A stretch of DNA of 64,000 bases. It comes from a virus. Taxonomy: Duplodnaviria; Caudoviricetes. This document shows positions 210 to 45,593 of the stretch, one piece after another (position 1 is the first letter of the stretch; every line of letters begins with the position of its first letter). Location: the IMG/VR virus record IMGVR_UViG_3300042483_000388, one strand, 5' to 3'. Both the position numbers and the translations under genes were made by a program. The notes under the pieces were generated by a model. The model made no database searches and was not told the DNA's origin. It saw nothing but the letters and a program-made list of their open reading frames with translations.

Positions 210-229
210 TTATGTTTTTATTATAAATA

Positions 230-5850: not shown

Positions 5851-5852
5851 AA

Positions 5853-6908: not shown

Positions 6909-6915
6909 ACTTAAA

Positions 6916-8552: not shown

Positions 8553-8555
8553 ATT

Positions 8556-11107: not shown

Positions 11108-11178
11108 GATCTTTTTTTTATTAATCGTAATTGATGATTGATTTAAGTAAATTAAAGATAAATCTATTTTTTATTGTC

Positions 11179-15184: not shown

Positions 15185-15187
15185 AAC

Positions 15188-15886: not shown

Positions 15887-15910
15887 TATCAGTGTATGTT
15901 ATATTATTTA

Positions 15911-17100: not shown

Positions 17101-17101
17101 A

Positions 17102-19922: not shown

Positions 19923-19925
19923 AAT

Positions 19926-28640: not shown

Positions 28641-31004
28641 ATGGCGACTACTAAAATAGTTTTAAATAATCAATCCGATTTGGTTCTAACTGGACCTACT
28701 ATTAGTTTACCAATAGGTATTGTTAAATCCGACATCCCATCTTTGGTTCAGGATCTTATTGGTCTTGGTGCTGCTGATGCTGCTGAAGCGGTTTCTCGTG
28801 CAAATGGAGACGTTGCTCTTCAGGCCGCATTGACACTTGCCGAAAACACATTAAACGCTGCCATTGTTTCTGGTGATGCCGCAGTAACTTCTGCATTAAA
28901 CGCATACAAGACGTTAAATGATGCTGCTCTCGCTTCTGAAGTAAGTTCAAGAAGTGCTGGTGATATCTCATTACAATCAGCTATCAATGCTGAGACATCT
29001 CGTGCAACTGCCGCTGAAGGTGTATTAACCACAGATTTAGGGGCTGAGGTAACTCGTGCGACTAACGCTGAAGGTGTTCTACAATCAAACATCAATACTG
29101 AACAGGCAAGAGCTGAGGCCGCTGAATTGTCAAACGCAAATGCAATCTCTACTGAAACACTTTCAAGAATTGCTGATGTAAACGCTGAACAACTCCGAGC
29201 TGAAACTGCAGAAAACCAATTGTCTGCTGATTTATCTACTGAGTCTGCAAATAGAGTGGCTGGTGACAGCGACAACTTGGCGGCAATAAACTTGGAAAAA
29301 GGAAGAATTGATGCTATCCTATTGGCCTCTGACGCAAACAAAGACAGCTTTGCTGAAATCGTTTCCTTAATCAACTCTGTTGATACAACAAATGATCAGG
29401 CTTTCGCTTCTTACGTTCTTTCTAATGATGCCTCTTTGGCTTCTGAGGTAACCGCTCGTGAATTTGGTGATTCAACTTTAACATCTAACTTGAATTCTGA
29501 AGTAATTCGTGCAACTGCTGCTGAGGGTGTATTAACCACAAACTTGTCTGCTGAGGTAACTCGTGCAACTGCTGCTGAGAGTTCATTAAGAAGTGACTTA
29601 ACTTCTGAGACAAATAACAGAACTTCCGCTGACTTAATGATCACAACTAATCTAAATGGTGAAATTGCTGATCGTATTGCTGGTGATGCAACTTTAACAA
29701 CCGACTTGGGTGCTGAAGTATCTCGTGCAACCCTTGCTGAAGGTGTATTAAGATCTGATTTAGCTGATGAAGTACAAGATCGTATGGATGCTGTAAGTGC
29801 TGAAGCAACTGCAAGAATTGCAGGTGATTCAACTTTAACAACCAACTTGGCTTCTGAAGTATCTCGTGCAACTGCGGCTGAAGGAGTAATCTCTTCTAAC
29901 TTGTCTGCTGAGGTAATTCGTGCAACTGGTGCTGAAGGTGTATTAGGTGGTCGAATTGATTCTGAAATATCTCGTGCAACAGGTGCTGAAGGAGTATTAA
30001 CTACTGATTTGGCTAATGAAGTACAAGATCGTATGGATGCTGTAAGTTCTGAAGAAACTGCAAGAATCGCAGGTGATTCAACTTTAACAATGGGCTTGGC
30101 TTCTGAAGTATCTCGTGCAACTCTTGCTGAGAATCAAATAAAATCTGACTTGATTGCTGAAGAATCTCGTGCAACTCTTGCTGAGAATCAAATAAAATCT
30201 GACTTGATCGCTGAAGAATCTCGTGCAACTGCTGCTGAAGTTGTTTTACAAACAAACATTAACACGGAAAAAGGAAGAATCGACGCAATACTTGACGGAT
30301 CAACTGTTAATTTAGATCAATTCTCTGAAATCGTTGCTTTTGTTAATGGTATTGATTTAACTAATGATAGTGATCTTCTTACTGCGGTTACGAACATAAA
30401 CACTTCAATTACTGCTGAGGTAACTCGTGCTGAAGGTGCTGAAGGTATGTTAGACGGTAAAATTTCAACTGAAAAATCAAGAGCTGAGGCTGCTGAGTTA
30501 GTATTAACTAATAATTTATCAAGTGAAGTTTCTCGTGCAATGCTTGCTGAAGGTGCATTATCTAATAGAATCAATTCTGAAGAAGAAGCTCGTATTGCGG
30601 CTGATGGTTTATTAGACGGTAGAATTTCTAATATCCTATCAAACACAGACCTTACTGCGACAGATTCATTTTCTGAGGTGGTTTCCAAAGTTAACAACGG
30701 ATTGTCTAGTGTTAACGGTAATGCTGATCTTTTTGTAAAGGCAAACCGACCAAGTATGATTGGATTTGCAGATAGCCCTGACGGAATCAAAACTCAATTT
30801 GACGCAAGTGTTGAATTTGGTACTGAGATTGTATTCTTAAATGGTTTAATGCAATTGGCGGGTGTAGGATTAGACTATGAAGTAATATCTAAGCCTTCAG
30901 GTTTATCGATTACATGGTTTAGATCTCCTTCGTTAAGTGACAAAATCAATATATATGGCGTACCTTCTGGTACATCAATTGGTTCAGTTCCAACAATTGG
31001 ATAA
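28641..31004 (+). CDS. Long coiled-coil fibre protein with about 18-residue repeats
   Basis: Recurrent AEVTRATAAEGVLTTNLS units, three D-x-F-x-E-(I/V)-V knuckle-like motifs and a C-terminal FLNGLMQ..DY domain. Confidence 0.75.
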   Translation: MATTKIVLNNQSDLVLTGPTISLPIGIVKSDIPSLVQDLIGLGAADAAEAVSRANGDVALQAALTLAENTLNAAIVSGDAAVTSALNAYKTLNDAALASEVSSRSAGDISLQSAINAETSRATAAEGVLTTDLGAEVTRATNAEGVLQSNINTEQARAEAAELSNANAISTETLSRIADVNAEQLRAETAENQLSADLSTESANRVAGDSDNLAAINLEKGRIDAILLASDANKDSFAEIVSLINSVDTTNDQAFASYVLSNDASLASEVTAREFGDSTLTSNLNSEVIRATAAEGVLTTNLSAEVTRATAAESSLRSDLTSETNNRTSADLMITTNLNGEIADRIAGDATLTTDLGAEVSRATLAEGVLRSDLADEVQDRMDAVSAEATARIAGDSTLTTNLASEVSRATAAEGVISSNLSAEVIRATGAEGVLGGRIDSEISRATGAEGVLTTDLANEVQDRMDAVSSEETARIAGDSTLTMGLASEVSRATLAENQIKSDLIAEESRATLAENQIKSDLIAEESRATAAEVVLQTNINTEKGRIDAILDGSTVNLDQFSEIVAFVNGIDLTNDSDLLTAVTNINTSITAEVTRAEGAEGMLDGKISTEKSRAEAAELVLTNNLSSEVSRAMLAEGALSNRINSEEEARIAADGLLDGRISNILSNTDLTATDSFSEVVSKVNNGLSSVNGNADLFVKANRPSMIGFADSPDGIKTQFDASVEFGTEIVFLNGLMQLAGVGLDYEVISKPSGLSITWFRSPSLSDKINIYGVPSGTSIGSVPTIG
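29763..30230 (+). repeat. Recent internal duplications in the fibre gene
   Basis: 111-bp near-identical direct repeat (29763-29873 vs 30012-30122) and a 54-bp tandem repeat (units starting at 30111, 30165 and 30219). Confidence 0.85.
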
Positions 31005-31738: not shown

Positions 31739-34700
31739 ATGCCAGTATATAATAGATTAACAGATAGGTCAAAAGTTTCGGCGGTTACGTTAAACGACAT
31801 TTTTCATGTTGTGGTTACTGGTGATACATCACAAAGTCCACAAGGTTCATCATATTATGCACCTTTAAGTGATTTACAAACAATATTAAGTGGGTCAACA
31901 GGACCAAGCGGTACCTCAGGTACAAGCGGAATAAATGGAACATCAGGGTCAAATGGAACTTCAGGAACAAATGGTACTAATGGAACTTCAGGAACAAATG
32001 GAACATCAGGAACCAATGGAACATCAGGAACCAATGGAACATCAGGAACCAATGGAACATCAGGAACCAATGGAACATCGGGTTCAAGTGGTACTAACGG
32101 AACGAATGGGACTAGCGGAACTTCAGGTACTTCAGGCACTAATGGTTCATCAGGTACTAATGGTTCATCAGGCACTAATGGTACGTCAGGCACTAATGGT
32201 TCATCAGGCACTAATGGTACGTCAGGTACTAATGGGACAAACGGAACATCAGGAACCTCTGGTTCAAGTGGGACATCAGGAACCTCGGGTTCAAGTGGTA
32301 CTAATGGTACGAGTGGGGTGAATGGTACTTCAGGTACTGACGGGACTTCTGGCACAAATGGTACGGACGGAACTAGTGGTACAAACGGAACAAGTGGAAC
32401 ATCTGGAACGAATGGAACGAATGGAACGAATGGGACAAGCGGCACAGATGGAACATCAGGAACAAATGGTACAAGCGGAACTAACGGAACTAGTGGTACA
32501 AACGGAACTTCAGGAACTAATGGAACTAATGGAACTAGTGGAACATCAGGGACAAACGGTACGAATGGAACATCAGGGACAAATGGTACTAGCGGTACCG
32601 ACGGAACATCAGGTACAAATGGAACTAGCGGTAGTTCAGGAACAAACGGAACATCAGGAACAAATGGAACTAGCGGTACTGATGGAACGAATGGCACATC
32701 GGGCACATCAGGAACTAATGGCACATCAGGAACTAATGGAACTAATGGGACAGATGGAACTAGTGGAACAAATGGGACTTCTGGAACTAATGGAACATCA
32801 GGGACTAATGGAACATCAGGGACTAATGGAACTAATGGAACTAATGGAACTAATGGGTCTTCGGGTTCAAGCGGAACTAATGGGACATCTGGTACTAACG
32901 GAACTTCGGGAACAGACGGAACTAGTGGAACTAATGGAACATCAGGATCAAGTGGTACAAATGGTACTAGCGGAACTAATGGGACTAGCGGAACTAATGG
33001 CACTAGCGGAACATCAGGATCAAGTGGTACGGACGGGACTTCAGGTACAAATGGAACTAGTGGAACTAACGGTACTTCGGGAACGGACGGGACTTCAGGT
33101 ACAAATGGAACTAGTGGAACTAACGGTACTTCGGGAACAGATGGGACATCAGGTACCAACGGAACATCAGGAACTAGCGGTACCGACGGAACATCAGGTA
33201 CAAATGGGACCAGCGGAACAAATGGAACTAGCGGTAGTTCAGGAACATCAGGAACAAACGGGACTTCAGGAACTAACGGAACATCAGGAACAAATGGTAC
33301 TGATGGTACATCGGGAACAAATGGGACTAGCGGTACTGATGGTACAAACGGAACTTCAGGAACAAATGGTACAAACGGAACTTCAGGGGCTAATGGATTT
33401 TCAACAGGTTTAGTTTATTATTTTAACCCTTCATCAGCATCTACAATTCCAACTTACTATGTTATGGATAGAAACATAGTGATAGGTGCCGGAACAACAT
33501 TAACTGCAACAGGGGGTGGAACACAACTAATAGGATCATTTTCAACAATTATTGGAGACCCTGGAATAACTACAATACCGTCAGGAAATTGGAACTTTGA
33601 GAATTACGTTGGTATGAGTTCCAATGGTGGTACTCCAAATTTATATGCTGATATATATATTAGAACAACAGGTGGTACTGAAACTTTAATTGGATCAAAT
33701 AGTGTATTACCCCACTCCATTACCGACGGTACGGTTGTGGAACTTTATTTATATTCGGTACCTGTATCCGCAACAACGGTAAATATTAATGATAGAATAG
33801 TCGTTAAGTTCTATGCAACCTCATTAGGTGGAAGAACAATGACTTGTTATTTTGAAGATGCGACAATTGCTCAGGTAACCACTTCATTATCACCATTTAT
33901 TGCGGGAACATCAGGTACAGATGGTACTTCAGGCACTAACGGTACTAGTGGTACAAATGGTACAAACGGAACTTCTGGGACTAATGGATCTAGCGGTACA
34001 AATGGAACTAACGGAACAAGTGGTACTAATGGAACCTCAGGAACTAATGGTACGGATGGTAGTTCGGGAACAAGCGGAACTTCAGGTTCATCAGGGACTA
34101 GTGGGACAAATGGAACAGATGGGTCTTCAGGTTCAAGCGGTAGCTCAGGCACTTCAGGATCTAATGGGTCTTCAGGAACAAGTGGTAGTAACGGAACAAA
34201 TGGAACGAATGGAACTTCAGGGACTAATGGAACAAACGGAACATCAGGGACTAATGGAACATCAGGAACAAATGGTACGAACGGGACTTCAGGTACAAAT
34301 GGAACTTCGGGAACAAATGGGACAAACGGAACATCAGGTACGAATGGTACTAGCGGTACTAGCGGAACTAACGGAACTAATGGAACTTCAGGTACAAATG
34401 GTACAAATGGTACGAGCGGGACCAACGGAACTTCAGGAACAAATGGTACAAATGGATCGTCAGGAACTAATGGAACTTCAGGTACAAACGGAACAAATGG
34501 AACTTCAGGTACTAATGGTACGAGCGGAACAAACGGAACAAGTGGATCATCACCTGCAGTACCAGGTTCAGATAATCAAGTTTTAACGTCAAACGGATCA
34601 GGAGGAATAGTTGCCGAATCTCTTTTAACATTTGATGGTACAAAATTAAGTGTATTGTATCAGGCTGGTGATGAAGGTGGGGAAATCCTATTAAACAAAC

Positions 34701-36910
34701 CTGTAACTAACACTACCATTTCAGGTACAGGGGTCACTTTTGACATATGGCAAGATAGAATTAGGTTTTTTGAACAAGGTGGTACTGCAAGAGGTGCGTT
34801 TCTTGACATAACCGCATGTGCTGCGGGTGTCGGTACAAATTTATTAACATCTGCCGGAACTTCAGGTACAAATGGAACTTCAGGAACGAATGGTACAAAC
34901 GGAACTTCAGGGACGAACGGTACTAATGGAACGTCGGGAACAAACGGTACGAATGGAACTAGCGGTACTAATGGAACATCAGGTACCAATGGAACAAATG
35001 GTACGTCGGGGACTAATGGAACATCAGGTACGAATGGGACTTCTGGAACTAGCGGAACTAATGGAACATCGGGAACTAACGGAACAAATGGTACTAGCGG
35101 AACAAACGGCACTAGCGGAACAAATGGAACTAATGGAACTTCAGGTACCAACGGCACTTCAGGAACAGATGGGACATCTGGTACTAACGGTACCAATGGA
35201 ACTTCAGGTACGGATGGAACTAGCGGAACATCAGGTACGGATGGAACTAGCGGAACATCAGGAACTAGTGGGGAAAACGGAATATCCGCAGGTCAAACAT
35301 ACTACTTCAATGAAAGTCAGAATAGTGATGTTTTAGGATATAAGGTATTATCAACAGAACCATCAACCGCATCAACACAAACAGTAACAACAAATTTATT
35401 AGGAATCCAACAAAACGTTTTAGTTTCTGATTACATAACACCACAATTAGGGTTTTCAGTTATTCCTGGTGGCGTACAAAGATTTCATTTACATTACTTA
35501 AAACCGGCAAGTAATGATGATATAGATGCATATGTTGAAATACAATTGGCAGATTCATCAGGAACAACTATAGGTCCAACAATAACTTCTAACATTTCAT
35601 TAATTGGTTGGGTTAGTGCGGTAATCCCTGTTGAAGTAAATGTAGATATAGTATTACCAACAACAACAATAGATCCAACAAATAGAATGATTGTTAGATT
35701 ATATTTGAGTAATAATGATGCAACGGCACATTCGGTGGTATATTATACTGAAGGTAATTCATATTATTCATTTGTTGTTACCTCAGTTGGCGCGATTGCC
35801 GGTACGTCAGGGACTTCAGGTACAAATGGAACCAGCGGTACTTCTGTTTCAGTTCCTGGATTAAACAATGAAGTTTTAACATCTGATGGATCAGGAGGTA
35901 TAGTTGCAGAAACTAATTTAATATTTAGTGGGTCACAATTATCCGTAACAGGTACGGTAGTAACTTATGGGTTTGCTCTTCCTAATATAGATACGTCAAC
36001 AGGATATTTAACCACATCAACACCTATGGTAACGTCTACTTCTATTGATTGGCTCAGTAGAATCGCCTATGATGTTTCTAGTACTTCAAGTATTAATTGG
36101 ACGAGTAGATATTTAACGGACTCATATCCTATTACTTCTGTTGATTGGGAAACTAAATATTTAAATGCGTATGACTTAACTACATCAGGGGCCACTCTTA
36201 GTGTTGATTGGAATTCTAGGTCATTATATTCATTTAGACCTCTTCCTATGCCAACTTCCACTCTTAGTGTGGATTGGCAGAATAGAACATTGAATGATAG
36301 TGGTGGTATTTCTTCAGTAGCATGGAGAGATCGCACCTTATACACACCTAATGGAACAACATCTTTAAATTGGACGGATGATACTTTTTTAGATTCAAAT
36401 GTTTATCAACGTGATTATAAATCTGCCGTTATACAAAACGCAGTATCAAATAACTATAACATTCCATATGGGTCATATTTAGGGGATGTAATTGAAGTAG
36501 ATGGTTCTACGACCTTTATGGATGCAGCAGTAACAGATGGAAATTTAGTTTATTTAGATACTAACGCCACTTGGTATCCTGTTAATCAAGCGGCAAGTGG
36601 GGCCACTTTCCTATTAGGTATTGCACATAACGTATATGCTCCTGGTGGAACAGGGTATGTTTTACTAGAAGGACATGTTGTAATTGATGATACATCATTC
36701 TCAGGACCAAATGTGCAAGGTGCGGATCATGGTTTACCAATATATATTAGAGATGGAACAACTCAGGGTCTTATGTCAACAGTCGTTCCTACTACGACTG
36801 GTGGACCAAATATAGTAAGAGTGTTAGGTCATTGTTACCAACAAAACTCAGGAACAGCAACACAATGGATGATGAAATTTAGACCATCAAATGATTGGAT
36901 AGAAATATAA
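31739..36910 (+). CDS. Collagen-like (Gly-X-Y) fibre protein, 1723 aa
   Basis: Four G-T-S/G-T-N/G-T-D/G-S-S tracts interleaved with duplicated globular domains, S(I/V)DW repeats and a C-terminal head domain. Confidence 0.85.
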   Translation: MPVYNRLTDRSKVSAVTLNDIFHVVVTGDTSQSPQGSSYYAPLSDLQTILSGSTGPSGTSGTSGINGTSGSNGTSGTNGTNGTSGTNGTSGTNGTSGTNGTSGTNGTSGTNGTSGSSGTNGTNGTSGTSGTSGTNGSSGTNGSSGTNGTSGTNGSSGTNGTSGTNGTNGTSGTSGSSGTSGTSGSSGTNGTSGVNGTSGTDGTSGTNGTDGTSGTNGTSGTSGTNGTNGTNGTSGTDGTSGTNGTSGTNGTSGTNGTSGTNGTNGTSGTSGTNGTNGTSGTNGTSGTDGTSGTNGTSGSSGTNGTSGTNGTSGTDGTNGTSGTSGTNGTSGTNGTNGTDGTSGTNGTSGTNGTSGTNGTSGTNGTNGTNGTNGSSGSSGTNGTSGTNGTSGTDGTSGTNGTSGSSGTNGTSGTNGTSGTNGTSGTSGSSGTDGTSGTNGTSGTNGTSGTDGTSGTNGTSGTNGTSGTDGTSGTNGTSGTSGTDGTSGTNGTSGTNGTSGSSGTSGTNGTSGTNGTSGTNGTDGTSGTNGTSGTDGTNGTSGTNGTNGTSGANGFSTGLVYYFNPSSASTIPTYYVMDRNIVIGAGTTLTATGGGTQLIGSFSTIIGDPGITTIPSGNWNFENYVGMSSNGGTPNLYADIYIRTTGGTETLIGSNSVLPHSITDGTVVELYLYSVPVSATTVNINDRIVVKFYATSLGGRTMTCYFEDATIAQVTTSLSPFIAGTSGTDGTSGTNGTSGTNGTNGTSGTNGSSGTNGTNGTSGTNGTSGTNGTDGSSGTSGTSGSSGTSGTNGTDGSSGSSGSSGTSGSNGSSGTSGSNGTNGTNGTSGTNGTNGTSGTNGTSGTNGTNGTSGTNGTSGTNGTNGTSGTNGTSGTSGTNGTNGTSGTNGTNGTSGTNGTSGTNGTNGSSGTNGTSGTNGTNGTSGTNGTSGTNGTSGSSPAVPGSDNQVLTSNGSGGIVAESLLTFDGTKLSVLYQAGDEGGEILLNKPVTNTTISGTGVTFDIWQDRIRFFEQGGTARGAFLDITACAAGVGTNLLTSAGTSGTNGTSGTNGTNGTSGTNGTNGTSGTNGTNGTSGTNGTSGTNGTNGTSGTNGTSGTNGTSGTSGTNGTSGTNGTNGTSGTNGTSGTNGTNGTSGTNGTSGTDGTSGTNGTNGTSGTDGTSGTSGTDGTSGTSGTSGENGISAGQTYYFNESQNSDVLGYKVLSTEPSTASTQTVTTNLLGIQQNVLVSDYITPQLGFSVIPGGVQRFHLHYLKPASNDDIDAYVEIQLADSSGTTIGPTITSNISLIGWVSAVIPVEVNVDIVLPTTTIDPTNRMIVRLYLSNNDATAHSVVYYTEGNSYYSFVVTSVGAIAGTSGTSGTNGTSGTSVSVPGLNNEVLTSDGSGGIVAETNLIFSGSQLSVTGTVVTYGFALPNIDTSTGYLTTSTPMVTSTSIDWLSRIAYDVSSTSSINWTSRYLTDSYPITSVDWETKYLNAYDLTTSGATLSVDWNSRSLYSFRPLPMPTSTLSVDWQNRTLNDSGGISSVAWRDRTLYTPNGTTSLNWTDDTFLDSNVYQRDYKSAVIQNAVSNNYNIPYGSYLGDVIEVDGSTTFMDAAVTDGNLVYLDTNATWYPVNQAASGATFLLGIAHNVYAPGGTGYVLLEGHVVIDDTSFSGPNVQGADHGLPIYIRDGTTQGLMSTVVPTTTGGPNIVRVLGHCYQQNSGTATQWMMKFRPSNDWIEI
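31892..33397 (+). repeat. Gly-X-Y coding repeat, tract 1 (9-bp periodicity)
   Basis: GGN-ACN-(TCA/AAT/AGC/GAT) units with synonymous variation; about 167 triplets estimated from tract length. Confidence 0.9.
33905..34546 (+). repeat. Gly-X-Y coding repeat, tract 2
   Basis: Same unit; about 71 triplets estimated from tract length. Confidence 0.9.
34856..35281 (+). repeat. Gly-X-Y coding repeat, tract 3
   Basis: Same unit; about 47 triplets estimated from tract length. Confidence 0.9.
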
Positions 36911-36911
36911 T

Positions 36912-37265
36912 ATGCCACCCCCATCAAGCAAAATATCAGGAATACCAGTAACATCCATAATTAATATGAAGAGTGTTAATGTAACATCTATTGTTTCAAT
37001 AGGTGGAGTATCTACATCAAATATTCCTGGATGGCCAAGTGGTAGTGGGTGCGAAACACTTATTTTAGGTTATGCTTCTGGTCCACCCCCTACACAGGCA
37101 TGTAGAAATAGAACAAATGAATACCAATTTGACTCTACTAATAGTATTTTATATGGTGTTGGAGAACCTTGCGGTGGCATACCAGCCCCTAACGGCTTTT
37201 ATTCTGATGGTAGGTCAATTTACACTTGGTTTGACGGAATATGGGGATTTGGGGGACCTTGTTAA
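36912..37265 (+). CDS. Small fibre-associated protein (117 aa)
   Basis: Starts 1 nt after the collagen-like gene; N-terminal KISGIPVTSIINM..SIVSIGGV repeat. Confidence 0.55.
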   Translation: MPPPSSKISGIPVTSIINMKSVNVTSIVSIGGVSTSNIPGWPSGSGCETLILGYASGPPPTQACRNRTNEYQFDSTNSILYGVGEPCGGIPAPNGFYSDGRSIYTWFDGIWGFGGPC

Positions 37266-37271
37266 TTTATA

Positions 37272-40196
37272 TTATCTGTTATCTATATAGATGATTACTT
37301 CACTATAGTATTCTATAAAATGATCATTCCATAGATCCCATTTAATATCTACACCATCTACGGAGAAAACTTGTATGTTATCAAATTGTGGAAAGATATT
37401 ATCTCTAAACCATCTGAACTTACATTTATGAAAACTATCATCATCTCTCATATGAAATTCCGTTACAATTTTTGGAATTGTTTTTAAAAACTCAATATTA
37501 CTTTGTTGGAACACATCGTATTCACCACCTTCACAATCACACTTTAAGAAATCTATTTTATCAATTCCGTTTTCATCTAAAAATTCTTTGAATGTAAATG
37601 TTGGAACACTCTCACTAACATTATCCCAAGTGATATGAATTTTCTTTTTATCTGTGATTGCCCCTTGAATAATTTTTACATTATCTTGACCAACATTTTT
37701 ATGAAGTATACCAACTTGGTATGATAATGGTTCCACAACATAACATTGTTTTGGATTCTTTGGTAAGATTTTATATGTGAACGGACCTAAGGACGCACCT
37801 AAATCAACAACAACATCACCTTCTTCAACTTCAAAATGTCTTTCATATGTATTATCTTCAAATATCTCTTTAATTGCAGCATCAACATACCAACCACTTT
37901 TTTTACCCCAGTCAAATTCAACCTCATCAAAATTTTCTTCCGTTACCCCTTCATTATTAATAATTCTATTTATTTGTTTAATTACCATATCAGAACTTAT
38001 TCGATTTGTACATTCAAACATTCGATCGGTATTTTTATGTAAAGGACACCAATTCCAGTCGCCAGCATCTAATCTTTCTGAATTAAAACATCCGTGACAA
38101 ACACTTTCATTAATAACTCTATATGTGTCTAAAGTTGTTTCTGCCCATTTCTCACTAAACCCTGAAATCAAAACAATAGGTAATTTACAAGCCCAAGCCA
38201 ACCAAGATAAACCAGACCCTAAACCAATAAAAAACTCACAACTTGATAGGTCATTAATAACTTCTTGTAGGTTTCCTCCTTTATAAATTGTTACGCCTTC
38301 AGGATAATGGTTACCCATATAGCCATCACCTTCTTTAGAATAGACCATGCATTCATATCCCAAATTATTAAGATGATCTATAACCGCTTGCCAAGCGTCA
38401 GGATTATTCCAATACTTTGCCTGTGCCGTAGAATGAAAACCAATACCCACTTTTTTCTTTTTAGGTGTGTTAGGTAATTTTAATAGTGGTCTAACTTCTT
38501 CATAATCTAAACCTAATATATCCGTTGCCGTTTTTTGTAATGGCATTTTTTTAAAATCAAATGGGTGTTTGTTTGCGTCAAATTTACCATCTTCATTATA
38601 AAACCAACCTAAATTATATTGTGCGTGTATGTTTGGTATTAATTCGCCAGGTTCAACAAACTCAATTTCAGGATACTGATCTTTAAACAAACTATTAAGG
38701 AATGTCGATACTATCGGTTTGCAACCATGTTTTTTTCTAAATACCTCACAATAAGGAACCCAAGCCATTGTATCACCTAATGATTTTGATCCGAATGAAA
38801 TATATACTCTCTTATCTTTTAGATCTAATGTCTCATCATAAATTACTTCACCATTTTCTTCAACTGTTGTTCTCCATTTAATGAAATATTCTTTATTTAA
38901 TTTAACCCAACTATTAATTGACAATTCATTTTGATATGATATTTCATTTTTATCATCATAATATTTAATATTCAATTTGTTTTCTGTGGTTCCTTGTATT
39001 TCAAAATAAGGTTGGGTAACATAATGTCTAACAAAGGTATAATCTTTGGTTAAAGGTTTGTTTTGGGTAATGTTTATATTTGTAACTGCGTTATAAAAAT
39101 TCAATAAATCTTCACCAAATGTATCATCAGGTAATATTTTATAAACGTCCTTATTTTCAATAAGTTCAACCAATTGTTTTGATATGTTTTTAACATCACC
39201 TTCTATTGGTGTTATATATCCGTCAAACATACCCATGTATTGTGGTAAATCTCTTGCAAGGATTTTCATTCCATAGTTGATTGATTCTCTAACAACCAAC
39301 GGATTACATTCCCAAGTTGAGTTAAACATTAAAACATCGCAAGCCGTCATGAATTTCTCAACGTCAGATCGTTCCCCCCATACTTTAACATTAGAAGGAA
39401 GGTCTTTCATAATAGGACCCCAATAGTCTTCAAAGTTTGGAGCTTGGTTCCCAATAAAATGAAATTCAATATCTGAGTTTGATTCAATTAATTCTTTTGC
39501 AACCTCAACACCTTCACCTTGATTTTTACCACTTGTCCATAACCCAACATTAAGTACGTGAGTTTTAAACATATCCAAACCAAGTTCATTTCTTACTTTA
39601 ATTTTTTCAATAAGTGGTACTTGATTAAAATCACCATAGATTTCATTCTCCTCTAAAATTTTAGTTACCTTATTCTCAATTGGGTATAACGATAAAAACT
39701 TAATTGGTGTTTCATTTAAAAACGTTTCCTTTAAATGATAAGGGGTAACAAAACAATATGCCTCAGGATTGAATTTTTTATGTGTTTGCGGATTAAACCA
39801 AACATTATGACAAGTCTCAACCATTTTCCAAGTCCTATCATTTGAATAAAGTTGATTTAACAATGGTAGCGGAATTTTATTAAAACTTTCAAACCCTTCA
39901 ACCATCTCTTCTGAATGGACAATATCAATATGATTGTTTTTAATAATATCAATTAACTCATATTTTCTTTTTGTGTTACTTGTATCCCCTAAACTAAAAA
40001 AATGACCTTCACCCAATATATCAATTATTTTATCTCGTTGAACAACATATGTATTACTAAACTGAGAATACTCAACCAAAAAGATTTCAATTTGGTCTTT
40101 GAATTTTTGAAGTTCTTGAATTCTTTTTAATACGAATTGGGGTTGTCCTCCAGTTGAAAGATGAGGTGTAAGATATAATAGTTTAATTTTTTTCAT
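37272..40196 (-). CDS. Three-domain protein: GT4-like + TibC/AAH-type protein O-heptosyltransferase + FkbM methyltransferase
   Basis: N-terminal YLTPHLSTGGQPQ..DVLMFNSTWECNPLVVRE; middle SLGDTMAW..FFIGLGSGLSWLAW..LISGFS..CHGCFN..CPLH..FEC; C-terminal VVVDLGASLG..VEP..IDFLKCDCEGGEY. Start taken at MKKIK (40196). Confidence 0.8.
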   Translation of the reverse strand: MKKIKLLYLTPHLSTGGQPQFVLKRIQELQKFKDQIEIFLVEYSQFSNTYVVQRDKIIDILGEGHFFSLGDTSNTKRKYELIDIIKNNHIDIVHSEEMVEGFESFNKIPLPLLNQLYSNDRTWKMVETCHNVWFNPQTHKKFNPEAYCFVTPYHLKETFLNETPIKFLSLYPIENKVTKILEENEIYGDFNQVPLIEKIKVRNELGLDMFKTHVLNVGLWTSGKNQGEGVEVAKELIESNSDIEFHFIGNQAPNFEDYWGPIMKDLPSNVKVWGERSDVEKFMTACDVLMFNSTWECNPLVVRESINYGMKILARDLPQYMGMFDGYITPIEGDVKNISKQLVELIENKDVYKILPDDTFGEDLLNFYNAVTNINITQNKPLTKDYTFVRHYVTQPYFEIQGTTENKLNIKYYDDKNEISYQNELSINSWVKLNKEYFIKWRTTVEENGEVIYDETLDLKDKRVYISFGSKSLGDTMAWVPYCEVFRKKHGCKPIVSTFLNSLFKDQYPEIEFVEPGELIPNIHAQYNLGWFYNEDGKFDANKHPFDFKKMPLQKTATDILGLDYEEVRPLLKLPNTPKKKKVGIGFHSTAQAKYWNNPDAWQAVIDHLNNLGYECMVYSKEGDGYMGNHYPEGVTIYKGGNLQEVINDLSSCEFFIGLGSGLSWLAWACKLPIVLISGFSEKWAETTLDTYRVINESVCHGCFNSERLDAGDWNWCPLHKNTDRMFECTNRISSDMVIKQINRIINNEGVTEENFDEVEFDWGKKSGWYVDAAIKEIFEDNTYERHFEVEEGDVVVDLGASLGPFTYKILPKNPKQCYVVEPLSYQVGILHKNVGQDNVKIIQGAITDKKKIHITWDNVSESVPTFTFKEFLDENGIDKIDFLKCDCEGGEYDVFQQSNIEFLKTIPKIVTEFHMRDDDSFHKCKFRWFRDNIFPQFDNIQVFSVDGVDIKWDLWNDHFIEYYSEVIIYIDNR

Positions 40197-40247
40197 ACTA
40201 TAAAAATAAAACATACATTTTAATTGTGAAGTTCATATCATTATAGA

Positions 40248-41195
40248 ATGAAAGATGTTTGTGTTGATGTGTTAGGATGTAGATCGTTAGGGGATACCTT
40301 AGCCGTTACACCAACTTTAAGAAAACTTTATAATTCTTACGGTAAAAAAATATCTGTCGCAACTCATCACCCCGAAATTTTTAAAAACAATCCTTACGTA
40401 GATAATATTTTTAATGAAATTACAGACGACATTAAAAATGATTATGAAGTATTTGAATCCTTTAATATTGGATACCACCCAAACGGTGTTTGTTATAAAC
40501 ATAACGCAATGGATATTAGACAATTTCATGCGGTTAATTTAGGGTTTATGTTGACCAGAGATGAAATGTCAATGGACTATTTTCCTGATGAGGTAGAATT
40601 AATTGAGGGGTTACCTGAAAAATATGTTTTAATTCACCCCGTTCAAAATTGGAATTCAAGAACATGGGATGAAAAAAAATGGCAAATGTTAACAAAACTC
40701 TTAAATGAAAGAGGTATTGCCGTTATTTCTGTTGGAAAAGATTCATCAGAACTTGGTGGTTCAAATGTGGATAAACCCGTTTTTAATTTTAATATTGATA
40801 TTGGTTTGAATTTAATGAACCAAACAACCTTATCTCAAACATGGTGGCTAATTAATAGTGCAATGTGTTTCATTACTATGGATTCAGGATTACTTCATTT
40901 AGCAGGAACAACAGACTCAGAAATAATCCAACTTGGAAGTTCAATACATCCTCAATTTAGAGCACCATATAGAAAAAATAATCAAGGTCATAAATACCAT
41001 TATGTTCTTGGTGGTTGTGGTTTACATTGTGCATCAGATATTAAATACGGAGTTAAAGAATGGAAATCAATACAAGGTATACCATCACTCGTTAATTGTT
41101 TAGAAAGAAAAGAAACATTTGAATGTCACCCCAACCCAATTATTATTTATAATAAAGTTTTGGAAATATTAGATTTAGAATATTTATGTAGATAA
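40248..41195 (+). CDS. GT9-like (heptosyltransferase-like) glycosyltransferase
   Basis: SLGDTLAVTPTLRKL, VLIHP, RTW, FITMDSGLLHLAG and a Cys-rich C-terminus. Confidence 0.85.
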   Translation: MKDVCVDVLGCRSLGDTLAVTPTLRKLYNSYGKKISVATHHPEIFKNNPYVDNIFNEITDDIKNDYEVFESFNIGYHPNGVCYKHNAMDIRQFHAVNLGFMLTRDEMSMDYFPDEVELIEGLPEKYVLIHPVQNWNSRTWDEKKWQMLTKLLNERGIAVISVGKDSSELGGSNVDKPVFNFNIDIGLNLMNQTTLSQTWWLINSAMCFITMDSGLLHLAGTTDSEIIQLGSSIHPQFRAPYRKNNQGHKYHYVLGGCGLHCASDIKYGVKEWKSIQGIPSLVNCLERKETFECHPNPIIIYNKVLEILDLEYLCR

Positions 41196-41210
41196 TCACA
41201 TTTTAATTAC

Positions 41211-41510
41211 ATGGCAAACCAAATTCAAATAAATTCAATATCTGGAACTTCACCATTTGATATCTATGTATGTGATGTAACCATATCGTATTGTTTTTTT
41301 GTTTCAGGAATCACCACAACACCATATACGTTTAATGTTCCTCCACCTTTAGAGTCTATAACACCAATTATTTTAAAAATTATAGATGCTAATGATTGTG
41401 AAAAAATATTCTTACTATCTTGTGGGGAAATATACGGAAAAGAATTTGAAGGTTTTGAAGTATTTTTATTTCAAGACTCATCAATTTTTTTATTCGAAGG
41501 TCCTCCTTAA
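41211..41510 (+). CDS. Small beta-rich protein (99 aa), possibly structural
   Basis: Clean ORF preceded by TATTTAT. Confidence 0.55.
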   Translation: MANQIQINSISGTSPFDIYVCDVTISYCFFVSGITTTPYTFNVPPPLESITPIILKIIDANDCEKIFLLSCGEIYGKEFEGFEVFLFQDSSIFLFEGPP

Positions 41511-41565
41511 ACTATTAATATTCATATTTTTTTCTTTTCTATTATTATTATGGAAATAACCAAAT

Positions 41566-42810
41566 ATGAATACAATATTTATACAAATCGCCTCCTATCG
41601 TGATCCCCAACTTAGTTTAACAATCTCAGATTGCATTAAGAACTCTAAATACCCCAAAAATTTGGTATTTGGTATTTGTAATCAATATCACCCTGACGAT
41701 GAATTTAATATTGATGAATATCAGAATGACAAAAGATTTAGAATTGAAAATGTTTTATATTCAGATTCTAAAGGGGCTTGTTGGGCTCGTAACTTATTAC
41801 AACAAAGATATAGTGGAGAAACTTACACATTACAAATAGATTCTCATATGAGATTTTCTCCCGATTGGGACATTGAGATGATTAAAATGGTTAAACAACT
41901 TCAAAAGAAAGGACATAAAAAACCTTTATTAACGGGTTATGTTTCATCATTTGATCCCGAAAATGATCCACAGGGAAGAGTAAATGAACCATGGAGAATG
42001 TCTTTTGATAGATTTACACCTGAAGGTGTTGTGTTCTTTTTACCTGAGGTTATCCCTGGATGGAAAAAATTAAAAGAACCTATCCCTTCCAGATTCTATT
42101 CCGCACATTTTTGTTTTACATTGGGGCAATTTGTCAATGAAGTCCAACACGACAAAGATTATTATTTTCACGGAGAAGAAATTTCTATTGGCGTAAGATC
42201 CTTCACATATGGGTATGATTTATTTCATCCTCACAAAGTTTTAATTTGGCACGAATATACTCGAAAAAACAGAACAAAAAGTTGGGATGACGATAAAGAT
42301 TGGCATAAGAAAAACACAGCTTGTCATATAAAGAACAGACAACTTCTTGGTGTTGATGGAGAAGTTTATGATGGAGACTACTCACAATACTTTGGTAATG
42401 AAAGAACCATTAGAGATTACGAAAGATATTCCGGAATTTTATTTTCTAAAAGAGCTGTTCAACAAGATACTTTAGATAAGAAATACCCACCCAACGATTA
42501 CCCATATTCGTCCGAAACAGAATGGATTAATTCTTTTGCCACAATATTTAAACATTGTATAGACATAAATTTAAATAGTGTTCCAGAAACAGATTATGAT
42601 TTTTGGGTTGTTGCCTTCCATAACGCAAAAGATGAAACAATATATAGACAAGATGCTGACGCAAACGAAATTTTAAGAATAAAAAATGATCCCGATGGAT
42701 ATGGAAAAATATGGAGAGAGTTTAATGCAACCGAAATACCAAAATATTGGGTGGTATGGCCACACTCCATATCTAAAGACTGGTGTGAAAGAATAGTAGG
42801 TAATTTATGA
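41566..42810 (+). CDS. GT60/Gnt1-like polypeptide GlcNAc-transferase
   Basis: TIFIQIASYRDP, GACWARN, LQIDSHMRF (DxH), SAHFCF and FHGEEISIGVRSFTYGYDLFHP. Confidence 0.8.
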   Translation: MNTIFIQIASYRDPQLSLTISDCIKNSKYPKNLVFGICNQYHPDDEFNIDEYQNDKRFRIENVLYSDSKGACWARNLLQQRYSGETYTLQIDSHMRFSPDWDIEMIKMVKQLQKKGHKKPLLTGYVSSFDPENDPQGRVNEPWRMSFDRFTPEGVVFFLPEVIPGWKKLKEPIPSRFYSAHFCFTLGQFVNEVQHDKDYYFHGEEISIGVRSFTYGYDLFHPHKVLIWHEYTRKNRTKSWDDDKDWHKKNTACHIKNRQLLGVDGEVYDGDYSQYFGNERTIRDYERYSGILFSKRAVQQDTLDKKYPPNDYPYSSETEWINSFATIFKHCIDINLNSVPETDYDFWVVAFHNAKDETIYRQDADANEILRIKNDPDGYGKIWREFNATEIPKYWVVWPHSISKDWCERIVGNL

Positions 42811-44474
42811 TAACATTAGTAACGGGTTTATGGGACATAGGTAGAGGTGACCTTAGTGAAGGTTGGTCAAGATCGTACCAACATTATCTTAATAAGTTTG
42901 AGGACTTACTTAAGGTAGAGAACAATTTAATCATCTTTGGTGATGAGGAATTAGAAAAGTTTGTTAAAGAGAGACGACAAGACCACAACACCCAATTTAT
43001 TGTTAGAGACTTAACTTGGTTTAAAAATAATGAATTTTATAATCAAATACAATCAATAAGGACAAACCCAAAATGGTATAATCTTGCGGGGTGGTTAACG
43101 GACTCAACTCAAGCAAAATTGGAAATGTATAATCCATTGGTTATGTCAAAAATGTTTATCCTTCACGACGCTTTGCTCTTGGATAAGTTTGTCTCAGAAA
43201 AACTATATTGGATTGATGCTGGATTATCAAATACTGTTAATTTAGGTTATTTCACAAAAGACAATGTATTACCAAATATCGATAATCTTTTTGATAAGTT
43301 CACGTTTATTTGTTTTCCATATCAAGCCAACACAGAGATACACGGATTTGATATTAAACAAATGGATAAATACACTAGAGATAGAGTTGATAAAGTTTGT
43401 CGTGGAGGTTTCTTTGGTGGACCAATTGAGGACATAAGACAAATGAATACCTTGTATTATAATTTAATTAAAGATACATTATCAAAAGGTTTAATGGGAA
43501 CAGAAGAAAGTTTATTCTCAATTCTATTATATAACAACCCAACCTTAATTGATTATGTTGAAATAAATGGTGACGGATTATTGTATAAGTTTTTTGAAGA
43601 TGTTAAAAACAATGATGTAAAAATCAAAACAATTTCAAGACCGAACGAAGTTATTAAGAAAACAAATGGTGGTGTTGGTTTATATGTTATAACATTTAAC
43701 AGCCCAAAACAATTTGAAACCTTAATTAAAAGTATGTTAGATTATGATCCGGACTTTATTAATAAGACAAAGAAGTTTTTATTGGATAACTCCACAGACC
43801 TATCAACAACTCCGAGATATAAAGAATTGTGTGAAGAGTATAACTTTGAACATATTAAGAAAGATAATATAGGTATTACTGGTGGTAGAGTGTTTGTTGC
43901 CGAACATTTTGATGAAACTGATTTGGACTTTTATTTTTTCTACGAAGACGACATGCTATTTTATTCAAAACCAAACTCAAAATGTAAGAACGGATTTAGC
44001 AGAAATTGTGATAAATTATATGACAAAGCTCTTCATATTATGAAGAAAGAGGAATTAGATTTTCTCAAGTTAAACTTTACGGAATTTTTTGGTTCGCACG
44101 AAAAACAGTGGTCGTGGTATAACGTGAGCAATGAATTTAGAAAAGAACATTGGCCGTTTAATCAAAACTTGCCGGTGCAAGGTCAAGACCCAAACTCACC
44201 AAATTTAGAATTTAAAAACATTAAATCACATAATGGGTTATCATATGCGACTGGTGAAATCTTTTTAAGCAATTGGCCGATCGTGTTAAATAGAGACGGC
44301 AATTACAAATGTTATTTAGAAACAAAATTTGCCCATCCTCACGAACAAACGGTGATGAGTCAATGTTATCAAGAAACCGTTAAGGGTAGAGTTAAGTCGG
44401 CAGTTTTATTACTTACACCAACAGAACACAACCGTTTCGATTTTTATGAGGCACATTTGAGAAAAGAATGTTAA
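42807..44474 (+). CDS. HtrL/WlaTC-family glycosyltransferase fused to a second GT-A-like domain
   Basis: TLVTGLWDIGR, YWIDAG, RGGFFGG and MGTEESLFS in the first domain; FYEDDM in the second. Confidence 0.7.
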   Translation: MITLVTGLWDIGRGDLSEGWSRSYQHYLNKFEDLLKVENNLIIFGDEELEKFVKERRQDHNTQFIVRDLTWFKNNEFYNQIQSIRTNPKWYNLAGWLTDSTQAKLEMYNPLVMSKMFILHDALLLDKFVSEKLYWIDAGLSNTVNLGYFTKDNVLPNIDNLFDKFTFICFPYQANTEIHGFDIKQMDKYTRDRVDKVCRGGFFGGPIEDIRQMNTLYYNLIKDTLSKGLMGTEESLFSILLYNNPTLIDYVEINGDGLLYKFFEDVKNNDVKIKTISRPNEVIKKTNGGVGLYVITFNSPKQFETLIKSMLDYDPDFINKTKKFLLDNSTDLSTTPRYKELCEEYNFEHIKKDNIGITGGRVFVAEHFDETDLDFYFFYEDDMLFYSKPNSKCKNGFSRNCDKLYDKALHIMKKEELDFLKLNFTEFFGSHEKQWSWYNVSNEFRKEHWPFNQNLPVQGQDPNSPNLEFKNIKSHNGLSYATGEIFLSNWPIVLNRDGNYKCYLETKFAHPHEQTVMSQCYQETVKGRVKSAVLLLTPTEHNRFDFYEAHLRKEC

Positions 44475-44502
44475 ACCCCAGTATTTATTGTTAAACTAAT
44501 TG

Positions 44503-45555
44503 ATGGAATGGTTTATTAAGAAAGGAGCGACGCTTCCTACATTAAAATTAAATATATTTAAAGACGGTAGAAGCGATTATAATAGATCTATGAAAGATCT
44601 AAATCAAGATGATATATTCTTTTCTATGGTTAATACCGAAACAGATATCCCAAGAATAACATCAAGACCGGCAGGTGTTATGGAAAAACCAAACATTGAC
44701 CCAACTTTAGAACCGGATTACTACGTTTACTATCAGTTCACACCTTTTGATACCAAAGTTGTTGGCAGATATAAAGCACAATTTTTAATTAGAAACCAAA
44801 CTGGTGTTTTGGTTTTACCATTAAATGATGAACTATATATAAATGTTACGGATAGTTTCATTATTGACGACTTACCATATGTTAGTTGTTATGTGGTTGA
44901 CTTTCCTTGTTGTGTTGGTTCAGGAGGTGTTAATCCAGGACCAGGTCCAGGTCCTTTCCCAACAACAACGACCACAACAATAATACCATATACAACCACT
45001 TCAACAACAAGTATACCATATACAACCACTTCAACAACTTTAGGTCCTGAACCAACAGCATATACAGAATGGGTTATATCGTTTGGGACACCATCTTCAA
45101 CAAATGCGTGCTCTGAGTCGGGCGAATATGTTACCGCATACACACCTGTAATGTCTGCATTAACAATAGGTCAAACCCTTTGGGCGACACCAGAATTCAA
45201 TACATACGCTTTTGGGACTAATGGTTCTTGGTTTAAAATTCTAAAAAGAAATGGATTGTCTTATTCACCAAATACTGTTATATATGTTGGTCAATATAGT
45301 TTACTATTCGGTAATTACACTCAAGTAATTTATTCACATGAGTGTGGAACTTCATTTCCTTGTAAATGTTTTACATATACTAAAACACAAAATAATCTGT
45401 TTAATTCGTTATATGTTAATTGCAATGGTAATATTGTAGGTATAACTTTACCTTTTAATGGATCTCAAACTTTCTGTGCGGCCTTTACACAACCGTATGA
45501 TTATATATCTGTAACGGGCGGAAATAACAACTGTGTTGGTGGTATTTGTCCTTAA
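44503..45555 (+). CDS. BppU-like N-terminal domain protein with a Thr-rich linker
   Basis: FIKKGATLPTLKL..VYYQF..DT..GRYKAQF domain, then PGPGP-TTTTTT..TTTSTT, then a Cys-containing C-terminus. Confidence 0.55.
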   Translation: MEWFIKKGATLPTLKLNIFKDGRSDYNRSMKDLNQDDIFFSMVNTETDIPRITSRPAGVMEKPNIDPTLEPDYYVYYQFTPFDTKVVGRYKAQFLIRNQTGVLVLPLNDELYINVTDSFIIDDLPYVSCYVVDFPCCVGSGGVNPGPGPGPFPTTTTTTIIPYTTTSTTSIPYTTTSTTLGPEPTAYTEWVISFGTPSSTNACSESGEYVTAYTPVMSALTIGQTLWATPEFNTYAFGTNGSWFKILKRNGLSYSPNTVIYVGQYSLLFGNYTQVIYSHECGTSFPCKCFTYTKTQNNLFNSLYVNCNGNIVGITLPFNGSQTFCAAFTQPYDYISVTGGNNNCVGGICP

Positions 45556-45593
45556 CTAAAATCACAACTAAAGTATTTATAAATAAAGTATTG

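Follow-up and report, generated by a model that had tools for sequence, protein, structure and literature searches.

A TibC-like glycosyltransferase fusion beside a giant collagen-like fibre gene in an uncultured jumbo phage: a candidate virion O-glycosylation module

The DNA considered here is a 64 kb stretch of IMG/VR record IMGVR_UViG_3300042483_000388 (hereafter the window; approximately 30% G+C), the source of which is an uncultured large myovirus. Within it, a gene encoding a collagen-like fibre protein, P0001, is met from the opposite strand by a gene encoding P0002, a 980 amino acid (aa) fusion composed of a glycosyltransferase (GT) domain of family GT4, a domain of the BAHT family typified here by TibC and AAH, and an FkbM-family methyltransferase domain; genes encoding GT9-like (P0005), GT60-family (P0003) and HtrL/YibB-like (P0004) proteins lie beyond it (Table 1). 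An initial annotation of this locus had proposed that the phage glycosylates its own Thr/Ser-rich fibres, and the elements upon which that proposal was built are largely confirmed. The 1723 aa collagen-like protein, made mostly of G-T-S/N triplets, is present where it had been placed, as are the GT9-like, GT60-like and HtrL-like genes and the FkbM methylase. The TibC/AAH-like fusion does fall within 0.4 kb of the fibre gene, 362 nt from its end, the point left unstated being that it is encoded on the minus strand and is thus convergent to that gene. The description of interleaved small structural genes is unsupported, as the two open reading frames (ORFs) concerned, of 117 and 99 aa, lack a family match.

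Table 1. Position and supporting evidence of the features of the fibre and glycosyltransferase cluster and of its surroundings (positions are those of the window).
Feature	Position	Strand	Evidence or content
Upstream sugar cassette, part 1	5044-21140	-	GT2, PhoH, nucleotidyltransferase, GDP-mannose dehydratase, aminotransferase, GDP-fucose-synthase-like
Upstream sugar cassette, part 2	5044-21140	-	GT11, GT2, GT6, GT25, GT2, double GT2, dUTPase, exonuclease, GT4-like
P0126, 787 aa, alanine-rich repeats	28641-31004	+	tblastn to annotated tail fiber proteins of Vibrio phages; phrog_13589 E 1e-42
P0001, collagen-like fibre protein, 1723 aa	31739-36910	+	Pfam Collagen E 1.6e-117 in 12 stretches
P0001 collagen block I, residues 52-555	31892-33403	+	Regex scan; 168 G-X-Y triplets (G-T-S, G-T-N, G-S-S, G-T-D)
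P0001 collagen block II, residues 723-938	33905-34552	+	Regex scan; 72 triplets
P0001 collagen block III, residues 1040-1183	34856-35287	+	Regex scan; 48 triplets
P0001 C-terminal globular domain, ~residues 1570-1723	36446-36907	+	AF2 model; fold resembles trimeric phage capsid decoration/cement proteins
117 aa ORF directly after fibre gene	36912-37265	+	No Pfam or PHROG match; homologue in one related locus only
P0002, 980 aa fusion	37272-40214	-	GT4 (207-356), BAHT (416-756), FkbM (793-926)
P0002 FkbM-family S-adenosylmethionine (SAM) methyltransferase domain, residues 793-980	37272-37838	-	PF05050 42.8 bits; TIGR01444 57.7 bits
P0002 BAHT domain, residues 416-756	37947-38969	-	TIGR04414 283 bits; TibC 4rap E 6.8e-69
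P0002 GT4 (GT-B, 'group 1') domain, residues 1-400	39015-40214	-	PF00534 33 bits; PF13692 33 bits
P0005, GT9-like, 315 aa	40248-41195	+	PF01075 56 bits; BLASTP to BAHT domain E 1e-5
99 aa ORF	41211-41510	+	Conserved in 33 related loci, several directly upstream of small collagen gene
P0003, GT60-family (PF11397), 414 aa	41566-42810	+	PF11397 E 8.2e-65, 220 bits; phrog_24687 E 1.7e-157, full-length
P0004, HtrL/YibB-like, 555 aa	42807-44474	+	PF09612 65.5 bits; N-terminal GT-A fold
RTATTTATW copies (examples)	24111, 31723, 44481, 46074, 57252, 61627	+	
RTATTTATW copies (examples)	24091, 31623, 50421, 54468	-	

A scripted regular-expression count of P0001 identified 293 G-X-Y triplets (124 GTS, 118 GTN, 21 GSS and 19 GTD) in four blocks, the three listed in Table 1 and a short fourth at residues 1355-1369. 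The longest run extends without interruption over 168 triplets, as is characteristic of collagen, while the stabilisers typical of collagen, proline/hydroxyproline or charge pairs, are missing: a single proline and no lysine are found among 879 repeat residues. These blocks alternate with other modules, such that a conserved 51 aa head is followed by block I, a globular domain, block II, a connector, block III and a second globular domain, and then by a short collagen stretch, another connector, beta-strand repeats and the C-terminal domain; the two globular domains are related to each other, as are the two connectors. PHROG and Pfam searches with the non-collagen domains returned only collagen-driven 'tail fiber' families, and a structural model of the repeat reached a pLDDT of ~30. 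A collagen helix rises 0.286 nm per residue, and the repeats, if they adopt such a helix, would span ~250 nm. Long antisense ORFs within the gene are artefacts of the repeat. P0001 also carries 133 N-x-S/T sequons, an automatic outcome of the GTN-GTS triplet pattern; N-glycosylation of these N-G-T/S sites was considered and rejected, as the window encodes no HMW1C/GT41-type enzyme and the sequons are a by-product of the triplets.

Judged by its sequence, the middle of P0002 is a genuine TibC/AAH homologue and a BAHT-family protein O-glycosyltransferase, in agreement with the initial annotation. Residues 416-751 score 283.1 bits against the NCBIfam equivalog model TIGR04414 (cut-off 200), and a phmmer comparison with PDB sequences matches the domain to TibC. 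Structural work on TibC assigned the role of catalytic base to Asp110, beta-phosphate contacts to Thr226 and Lys230, and sugar binding to Trp305, and described an iron finger held by four cysteines (PMC4358343). The corresponding residues of P0002 (D481, T596, K600 and W671) are invariant in 82 phage homologues, as are C706, C709, C723 and C735, equivalent to the iron-finger residues Cys339, Cys342, Cys358 and Cys370 (82 of 82). Invariance of the catalytic base and of the phosphate- and sugar-binding residues across these sequences argues for retained catalysis. The sugar transferred need not be heptose, as the Arg by which TibC reads the adenine of ADP-heptose is replaced in 81 of the 82 homologues. 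Pro300, a determinant of heptose C6 stereoselectivity in TibC (PMC4358343), is replaced by Gly in P0002 and by Gly, Ala or Ser among its homologues. The N-terminal barrel (TibC residues 1-97) is only partly alignable, the alignment beginning at TibC residue 61 (model position 31); the homologue in the cultured Microcystis phage Mel-JY01 covers positions 9-373 of the TIGR04414 model. Pfam recognises GT4, GT9-like and FkbM domains in P0002, and the FkbM scores exceed the cut-offs of both PF05050 (22.7) and TIGR01444 (37.7).

In P0005, residue D16, which lies in an SLGD motif common to the BAHT domain, and C257, C261, C284 and C293 are invariant in 24 homologues, and the four-Cys cluster occupies a C-terminal position equivalent to that of the BAHT domain. 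Because it combines this motif with this cluster, P0005 may be a second, minimal BAHT-like enzyme, one without the barrel and with a metal finger of its own. P0003 scores far above the Pfam cut-off of 21 bits for GT60, and 8 homologues, as distant as 43% identity, all retain its D92-S93-H94; by analogy with GT27 and GT60 we take this to be the metal-binding D-x-H site of a GT-A fold. No PDB sequence match to P0003 was found, profile search included. Characterised GT60 enzymes are polypeptide alpha-N-acetylglucosamine (GlcNAc) transferases and initiate mucin-type O-glycans on domains rich in Ser/Thr (PMC8724618, PMC9472816). The characterised members of the BAHT (TibC/AAH) and GT60 families all glycosylate polypeptides, as the initial annotation had held. 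Among cultured phages, relatives of P0003 are found only in the jumbo phages XacN1, Xoo-sp13, CM1 and RAS14. In XacN1 (AP018399, 196000-232500) the homologue, 44% identical, adjoins a carbamoyltransferase gene; a GT9 gene, the genes for the baseplate wedge and a 3313 aa non-collagen ORF, which has a short Pro/Ser/Thr-rich tract near its C-terminus, lie at a distance of ~9 kb. P0004 exceeds the Pfam cut-off for its family (24.1 bits) and falls below that of the NCBIfam equivalog (76 against 265); it has no PDB sequence match, while the model of its HtrL-like domain resembles LARGE1, BoGT6a, GTB and LgtC (VIA Z ~11) and has E. coli HtrL as its top AFDB Swiss-Prot match (E 8e-14). Residues 285-555 of P0004 are highly conserved in relatives and carry an E-D-D motif, with a pLDDT below 50 and no family match, and this C-terminal half may be a second transferase domain.

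The association of BAHT and collagen genes recurs well beyond the window. BAHT relatives occur on 290 IMG/VR contigs, including complete genomes of 288 and 373 kb, and number more than 3500 in the protein database. For analysis of linkage, 80 BAHT loci were grouped into 41 lineages (95% clusters) and scanned in all frames for G-X-Y runs, the count being based on the 29 of them for which 5 kb or more of flanking sequence was available. In ~19 of these 29, no more than 5 kb separates the BAHT gene from a collagen ORF rich in Ser/Thr/Asn. Such ORFs reach 3395 aa in relatives, and the genomes of five relatives (220-373 kb; completeness 75-100% by CheckV) have their main collagen ORF within ~10 kb of the BAHT gene. 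At least five arrangements were observed. The two genes may converge, either abutting, as in the window, or with other genes inserted between them; the collagen gene may precede the BAHT gene on its own strand; it may directly follow a stand-alone BAHT gene of 383-388 aa (lineages L069 and L073); and the fifth arrangement is that of Mel-JY01. In a further lineage (L030) the GT operon itself contains, flanked by its GT60 and GT9 genes, a 444 aa collagen gene, the first 52 residues of which are nearly identical to those of P0001. The co-occurrence of such acceptors and transferases, offered in the initial annotation as a means of checking its proposal, is therefore found across diverged phage genomes and in several gene orders, and adjacency that survives rearrangement is a stronger argument than the lineage counts.

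One of these arrangements is that of Mel-JY01 (lineage L081, PP395634), the BAHT domain of which is 50% identical to that of P0002. The same three modules are fused in the two phages in differing order, Mel-JY01 having GT4, FkbM and then BAHT, and its genes run collagen, structural protein, fusion, with a GTS/GSS collagen ORF of at least 1016 aa located 1.7 kb upstream on the same strand. This frame (2-3052, plus strand) ends in a globular C-terminus and is open at the start of the record. In its place the GenBank entry annotates as hypothetical two Pro/Val/Glu-rich antisense frames (1-651 and 739-2298, minus strand), which is probably a wrong-strand call.

None of the GTs encoded in the window has a predicted transmembrane helix. 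Additionally, searches of four near-complete relatives and of Mel-JY01 detected no Bac_transf/WecA-type priming phosphoglycosyltransferase, no Wzy/ligase and no Wzx flippase, while control genomes were matched by the same searches. Together, the lack of membrane helices and of phage-encoded lipid-carrier machinery favours sequential cytoplasmic transfer onto a soluble acceptor, though host machinery may also be used.

From these domain identities, conserved catalytic residues, gene linkage and missing lipid-carrier genes we infer an acceptor, a sugar supply, an order of steps and a role for the glycan. That the cluster glycosylates protein is likely, and that the fibre is an acceptor is plausible and has genomic support. 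This support does not reach the wider scheme of the initial annotation, in which glycans would be initiated, extended and capped in order, on tail proteins and PT tracts too, and would act as a shield. On balance, and with moderate confidence, we favour a cytoplasmic O-glycosylation module that acts mainly on the phage's own Ser/Thr-rich, proline-free collagen-like virion fibre, namely P0001 and the smaller paralogues in relatives. Under such a scheme the BAHT domain of the fusion would place the first sugar on the Ser (or Thr) of G-T-S and G-S-S triplets, probably before or during trimer folding, the fused GT4 domain would add a second sugar, and the FkbM domain would O-methylate the sugar added by GT4. 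The GT9-like, GT60 and HtrL-like enzymes could add more sugars, whether to start chains or to extend them, and might do so on Thr or on the Pro-Thr (PT) tracts of other virion proteins, and the variable cassette upstream could supply GDP-deoxyhexose and amino-sugar donors along with further extension GTs. Dense glycosylation would then stabilise and hydrate the proline-free triple helix, and the particle would acquire long, sugar-coated fibres.

Several observations weigh against glycosylation of the fibre by this module. Firstly, TibC's known acceptors are the folded beta-helical repeats of autotransporters and not collagen (PMC4358343). Secondly, Arg286 of TibC, which hydrogen-bonds adenine N1 and explains the enzyme's specificity for ADP (PMC4358343), corresponds to Val652 in P0002 and to V, L, I or T in 81 of the 82 homologues; because this contact is lost and the R286A substitution cripples TibC (PMC4358343), the donor and even the activity of the domain are in doubt. 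Thirdly, the linkage is incomplete. In seven lineages neither a collagen ORF nor another S/T-rich one occurs within 10 kb of the BAHT gene; of these, one (G008) has collagen genes 19-30 kb or more away, one has collagen at 10.5 kb and one only at a contig end, and one 85%-complete genome (G009) has none. Conversely, a noisy scan from the fibre connector towards BAHT, which was saturated by the word GTNGTNGT and yielded 38 loci, many of them truncated, found many fibre loci with no BAHT gene within 10 kb. The linkage counts are moreover not independent, since the sampled genomes are related and part of the signal is inherited gene order, and neighbourhoods of fibre genes are known hot spots for accessory genes. 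Structure prediction of a complex between the BAHT domain and collagen segment one scored 0.01, which counts neither for nor against the proposal.

Where such a fibre would sit on the particle can be approached through its C-terminus. An AF2 model of residues 1500-1723 (pLDDT 83.6) comprises beta-strand repeats followed by a globular domain, and an exhaustive VIA-align search with this domain placed capsid decoration proteins in each of its first 12 ranks (Z 9.2-6.6). The alignments cover 98-129 residues, and all but one of them reach 114 or more; the proteins matched include those of HFTV1 and Pam3 (cement proteins, Z 9.2), BB1, Adjutor, FCWL1, XM1, Sf11 and TW1, and the base of the phi29 head fibre (gp8.5) scored Z 5.1. 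Foldseek likewise ranked capsid chains first, with a weak E of ~1e-3, while a sequence-family search found no match to capsid decoration or cement families. The likeness of the last ~150 residues to trimeric decoration/cement proteins and to the phi29 base is one of predicted fold only, at 12-15% identity, and the same fold terminates many BFVD proteins labelled tail-fibre-like or collagen. Taken as a domain, the final 300 residues of P0001 recur as the C-terminal part of 755 protein clusters that vary in length, and several collagen ORFs of relatives end in diverged copies of the C-terminal domain (28-31% identity). A common N-terminal head combined with differing C-termini is the usual pattern among tail fibres. 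From the modelled fold on one side and the shared head with differing C-termini on the other, P0001 could with about equal probability be a head fibre or a tail fibre, and would be a virion fibre either way. Just upstream, P0126, the repeats of which are read as coiled coil, suggests that the two genes form a fibre gene module.

A more ambitious form of this interpretation, possible but doubtful, is that glycosylation is structurally required. The TibC-type enzyme would add sugar to Ser/Thr in every triplet so that proline-free collagen can fold, giving fibres of ~0.25 micrometre here and as much as ~0.8 micrometre in relatives, anchored to the capsid by the decoration-protein-like domain. The result, in a widespread clade of freshwater jumbo phages, would be a glycocalyx analogous to the fibrils of Mimivirus, its coat diversified by the variable cassette.

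Among the alternatives, the one that survives best, unlikely as we consider it, retains phage proteins as substrates of the GTs and places the main acceptor elsewhere in the virion, the proximity of the collagen gene reflecting inherited order or a fibre-module hot spot. Candidate acceptors would be P0126 or the PT and poly-Thr tracts that, as the initial annotation reported, do occur in several virion proteins, specifically in the 727 aa, 410 aa and 351 aa proteins (the last with poly-Thr at residues 152-183) and in the tail sheath. Such an arrangement would suit GT60 enzymes, which classically act on Thr-rich mucin-like tracts (PMC8724618, PMC9472816), and a TibC relative, given that TibC works on beta-helical repeats and not on collagen; some BAHT lineages indeed lack a nearby collagen gene, and the GT60 and GT9 genes of XacN1 lie near baseplate genes and a giant ORF that is not collagen and has a Pro/Ser/Thr-rich tract. 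Against this, adjacency to collagen holds through five arrangements and down to ~50% BAHT identity, the collagen gene nested in a GT operon included, and PT-tract genes showed no conserved linkage of this kind.

The sugar cassette upstream of the fibre module bears on a second alternative. It likely provides donor and extension enzymes, and the GDP-deoxyhexose pathway that had been attributed to the window is present, as a GDP-mannose 4,6-dehydratase and a GDP-fucose-synthase-like epimerase were found together with a DegT aminotransferase and a small nucleotidyltransferase; the accompanying estimate of about 15 GT genes holds as a number of domains, ~15 of which are carried by 13 genes in the whole window. 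The centre of the cassette (~10000-17500, minus strand), which holds the aminotransferase, two unassigned ORFs, the Fcl-like gene, GT11, GT2, GT6, GT25 and GT2, is unmatched at DNA level in five related genomes, while both flanks match at 66-77%. It thus behaves like a variable, O-antigen-like segment, the pattern expected of a diversifying surface glycan. Identification of the 147 aa nucleotidyltransferase as a heptose-1-phosphate adenylyltransferase was rejected (81 bits against a cut-off of 181, close to its glycerol-3-phosphate cytidylyltransferase score of 70). GmhA-like and heptose-kinase-like genes were found in one of five relatives only (G002, IMGVR_UViG_3300042558_004148, 373 kb), where a heptose-7-phosphate-kinase-like gene (301 bits, just below cut-off) and a GmhA-like SIS gene occupy 39139-40074 and 118722-119126, respectively, which hints that at least this lineage makes nucleoside diphosphate (NDP)-heptose itself.

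An O-antigen-like cassette of GDP-sugar enzymes, GT2, GT11, GT6 and GT25, with a centre that varies between relatives, would also be expected if the GTs remodel the glycans or surface proteins of the host envelope (lipopolysaccharide (LPS), capsule, S-layer or autotransporters), whether for superinfection exclusion, a role often proposed along with avoidance of progeny sticking to debris for LPS-type genes of cyanophages, or for that second purpose. The HtrL and GT9 families take their names from LPS core genes, and peripheral GTs of lipid-linked pathways likewise lack transmembrane helices. We nevertheless judge remodelling of the host envelope to be improbable: five relatives encode no priming phosphoglycosyltransferase, flippase, polymerase or ligase, the host would have to provide every membrane step, the BAHT and GT60 families act on polypeptides directly, and the cluster is tied to fibre genes and not to early genes.

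Two further alternatives fare worse. The BAHT-like domain could be a non-catalytic or otherwise acting iron-finger scaffold, as has been argued for BimC of Burkholderia, and the G-T-S repeat some other glycine-rich fibre fold, the two having no link through glycosylation. The lost ADP-contacting Arg, the proline-free repeats and the low pLDDT of the repeat model would all fit, but the invariance of the catalytic base and of the phosphate- and sugar-binding residues across 82 sequences, and the fusion of the domain to a second GT and a methyltransferase, make this quite improbable. Glycosylation of hypermodified phage DNA bases to evade restriction, a frequent role of phage GTs for which a dUTPase/dCTP-deaminase-like gene in the upstream block might speak, is very improbable, given that none of BAHT, GT60, GT9, GT11, GT6, GT25, GT2 and GT4 is a known DNA base glycosyltransferase family, that no base hydroxymethylase was seen in the window and that the BAHT domain passes a curated protein-O-glycosyltransferase model.

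To our knowledge, virion glycosylation in tailed phages has so far been documented for a few mycobacteriophages only, and the sole known role of BAHT enzymes is as partners to the virulence autotransporters of bacteria. Among the papers searched, none connects BAHT enzymes with phages or assigns dedicated GTs to collagen-like phage fibres; the 'moraphage' paper mentions only generic GT orthogroups (PMC12619734).

The closest known system is that of TibC and AAH acting upon TibA and AIDA-I (PMC4358343), which shares with P0002 a homologous catalytic core, the Asp, Thr/Lys and Trp residues and the four-Cys iron finger, as well as a soluble cytoplasmic enzyme encoded next to a long repetitive surface protein; TibC puts many sugars on Ser, as we propose for P0002. 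P0002 differs in being phage-encoded and fused to GT4 and FkbM domains, in the replacement of Arg286 and the change of Pro300 to Gly, and in its partly alignable barrel, and the putative acceptor next door is a collagen-like repeat where that of TibC/AAH is a beta-helix. A Thr-rich collagen-like filament with a trimeric C-terminal domain and O-linked oligosaccharides ending in a modified sugar is known in BclA of the Bacillus anthracis exosporium, as summarised in PMC11923368; BclA is a spore and not a virion protein, has Gly-Pro-Thr repeats that are far shorter and is served by transferases unrelated to BAHT. The same source describes Riftia cuticle collagen and (Gly-Pro-Thr(Gal))10 peptides, in which a glycosylated hydroxy-amino acid replaces hydroxyproline as stabiliser of the helix. 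Riftia collagen is an animal protein with Thr in the Y position and proline kept, whereas P0001 has Thr in X, Ser/Asn/Asp in Y and proline-free repeats.

Viral precedents are found in PBCV-1, where A064R joins two rhamnosyltransferase domains and a methyltransferase in one polypeptide much as P0002 joins its GT, GT and methyltransferase domains, and in Mimivirus, where low-proline collagen-like proteins are modified by the viral enzyme L230, both being instances of virus-encoded virion glycosylation independent of the host (PMC9614988). These are, however, eukaryotic viruses, their glycans are N-linked on the capsid or consist of glucose (Glc) on hydroxylysine, and their enzymes have no sequence relationship to those of the window. 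Mycobacteriophages are tailed phages that O-glycosylate their own virion proteins by means of phage GTs encoded near structural genes (Freeman et al., 2023, as reported in PMC12619734). They are small siphoviruses in which the acceptors are the C-terminal tails of capsid and tail-tube subunits, with few GTs and no known BAHT enzyme, GT60 enzyme or collagen-like fibre.

If glycosylation of the collagen-like fibre is indeed what this module accomplishes, a large clade of jumbo phages, common in the environment and represented by hundreds of contigs and the cultured Mel-JY01, would coat giant collagen-like fibres by means of a BAHT-GT4-methylase enzyme. BAHT biology would thereby extend to a new class of acceptor and probably to a new donor sugar, the fibres would offer a natural system in which to ask whether collagen can fold with glycosylation in place of proline, and glycan coats would shape the adsorption, the stability, or the avoidance of grazing or immunity of large aquatic phages. 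The availability of Mel-JY01 in culture and of co-expression in E. coli makes the idea directly testable.

With respect to the identity of the phage, the designation 'jumbo' given in the initial annotation is fair, since the contigs of close IMG/VR relatives measure 274-373 kb and two of these contigs bear terminal repeats, while 'T4-like' does not stand. The window's PolB is ~23% identical to polymerases of Salinibacter phages, its best tblastn matches being Salinibacter and Nostoc phages at 22-30%, and the best relatives of the 1117 aa tail sheath (57292-60645, plus strand) belong to Mel-JY01 (33%) and to a 484 kb metagenomic phage; a T4-type replication and structural core was not found, and likeness to T4 is confined to the C-terminal domain of the sheath, which resembles T4-type sheaths. 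The sheath is unusually long and bears in its N-terminal extension a tract of 42 Pro/Thr/Ser residues (289-330). The phage collection searched contained no DNA nearly identical to the window.

The motif RTATTTATW occurs 22 times in the window against 17 +/- 4 expected and is thus not enriched overall. More than half of its copies occupy short gaps between genes, in the correct orientation and immediately before a gene start, with the fibre, sheath, PolB and helicase genes among those concerned, making it a candidate promoter element. Because it is common to the regions upstream of fibre, sheath and PolB and lacks enrichment, it tells nothing about the timing of expression. Directly beyond the GT cluster, two adjacent ORFs of 351 and 159 aa (44500-45555 and 45546-46025, plus strand) have similar N-termini and are conserved in 17 related loci, with no family match. 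Farther along, a 736 aa protein (50450-52660, minus strand) contains a complete Fe/Mn superoxide dismutase domain (residues 166-354) between N- and C-terminal regions without assignment, and a 320 aa ORF with a NUMOD3 motif of the homing-endonuclease type (54490-55452, plus strand) lies between an SNF2 helicase gene and the tail genes.

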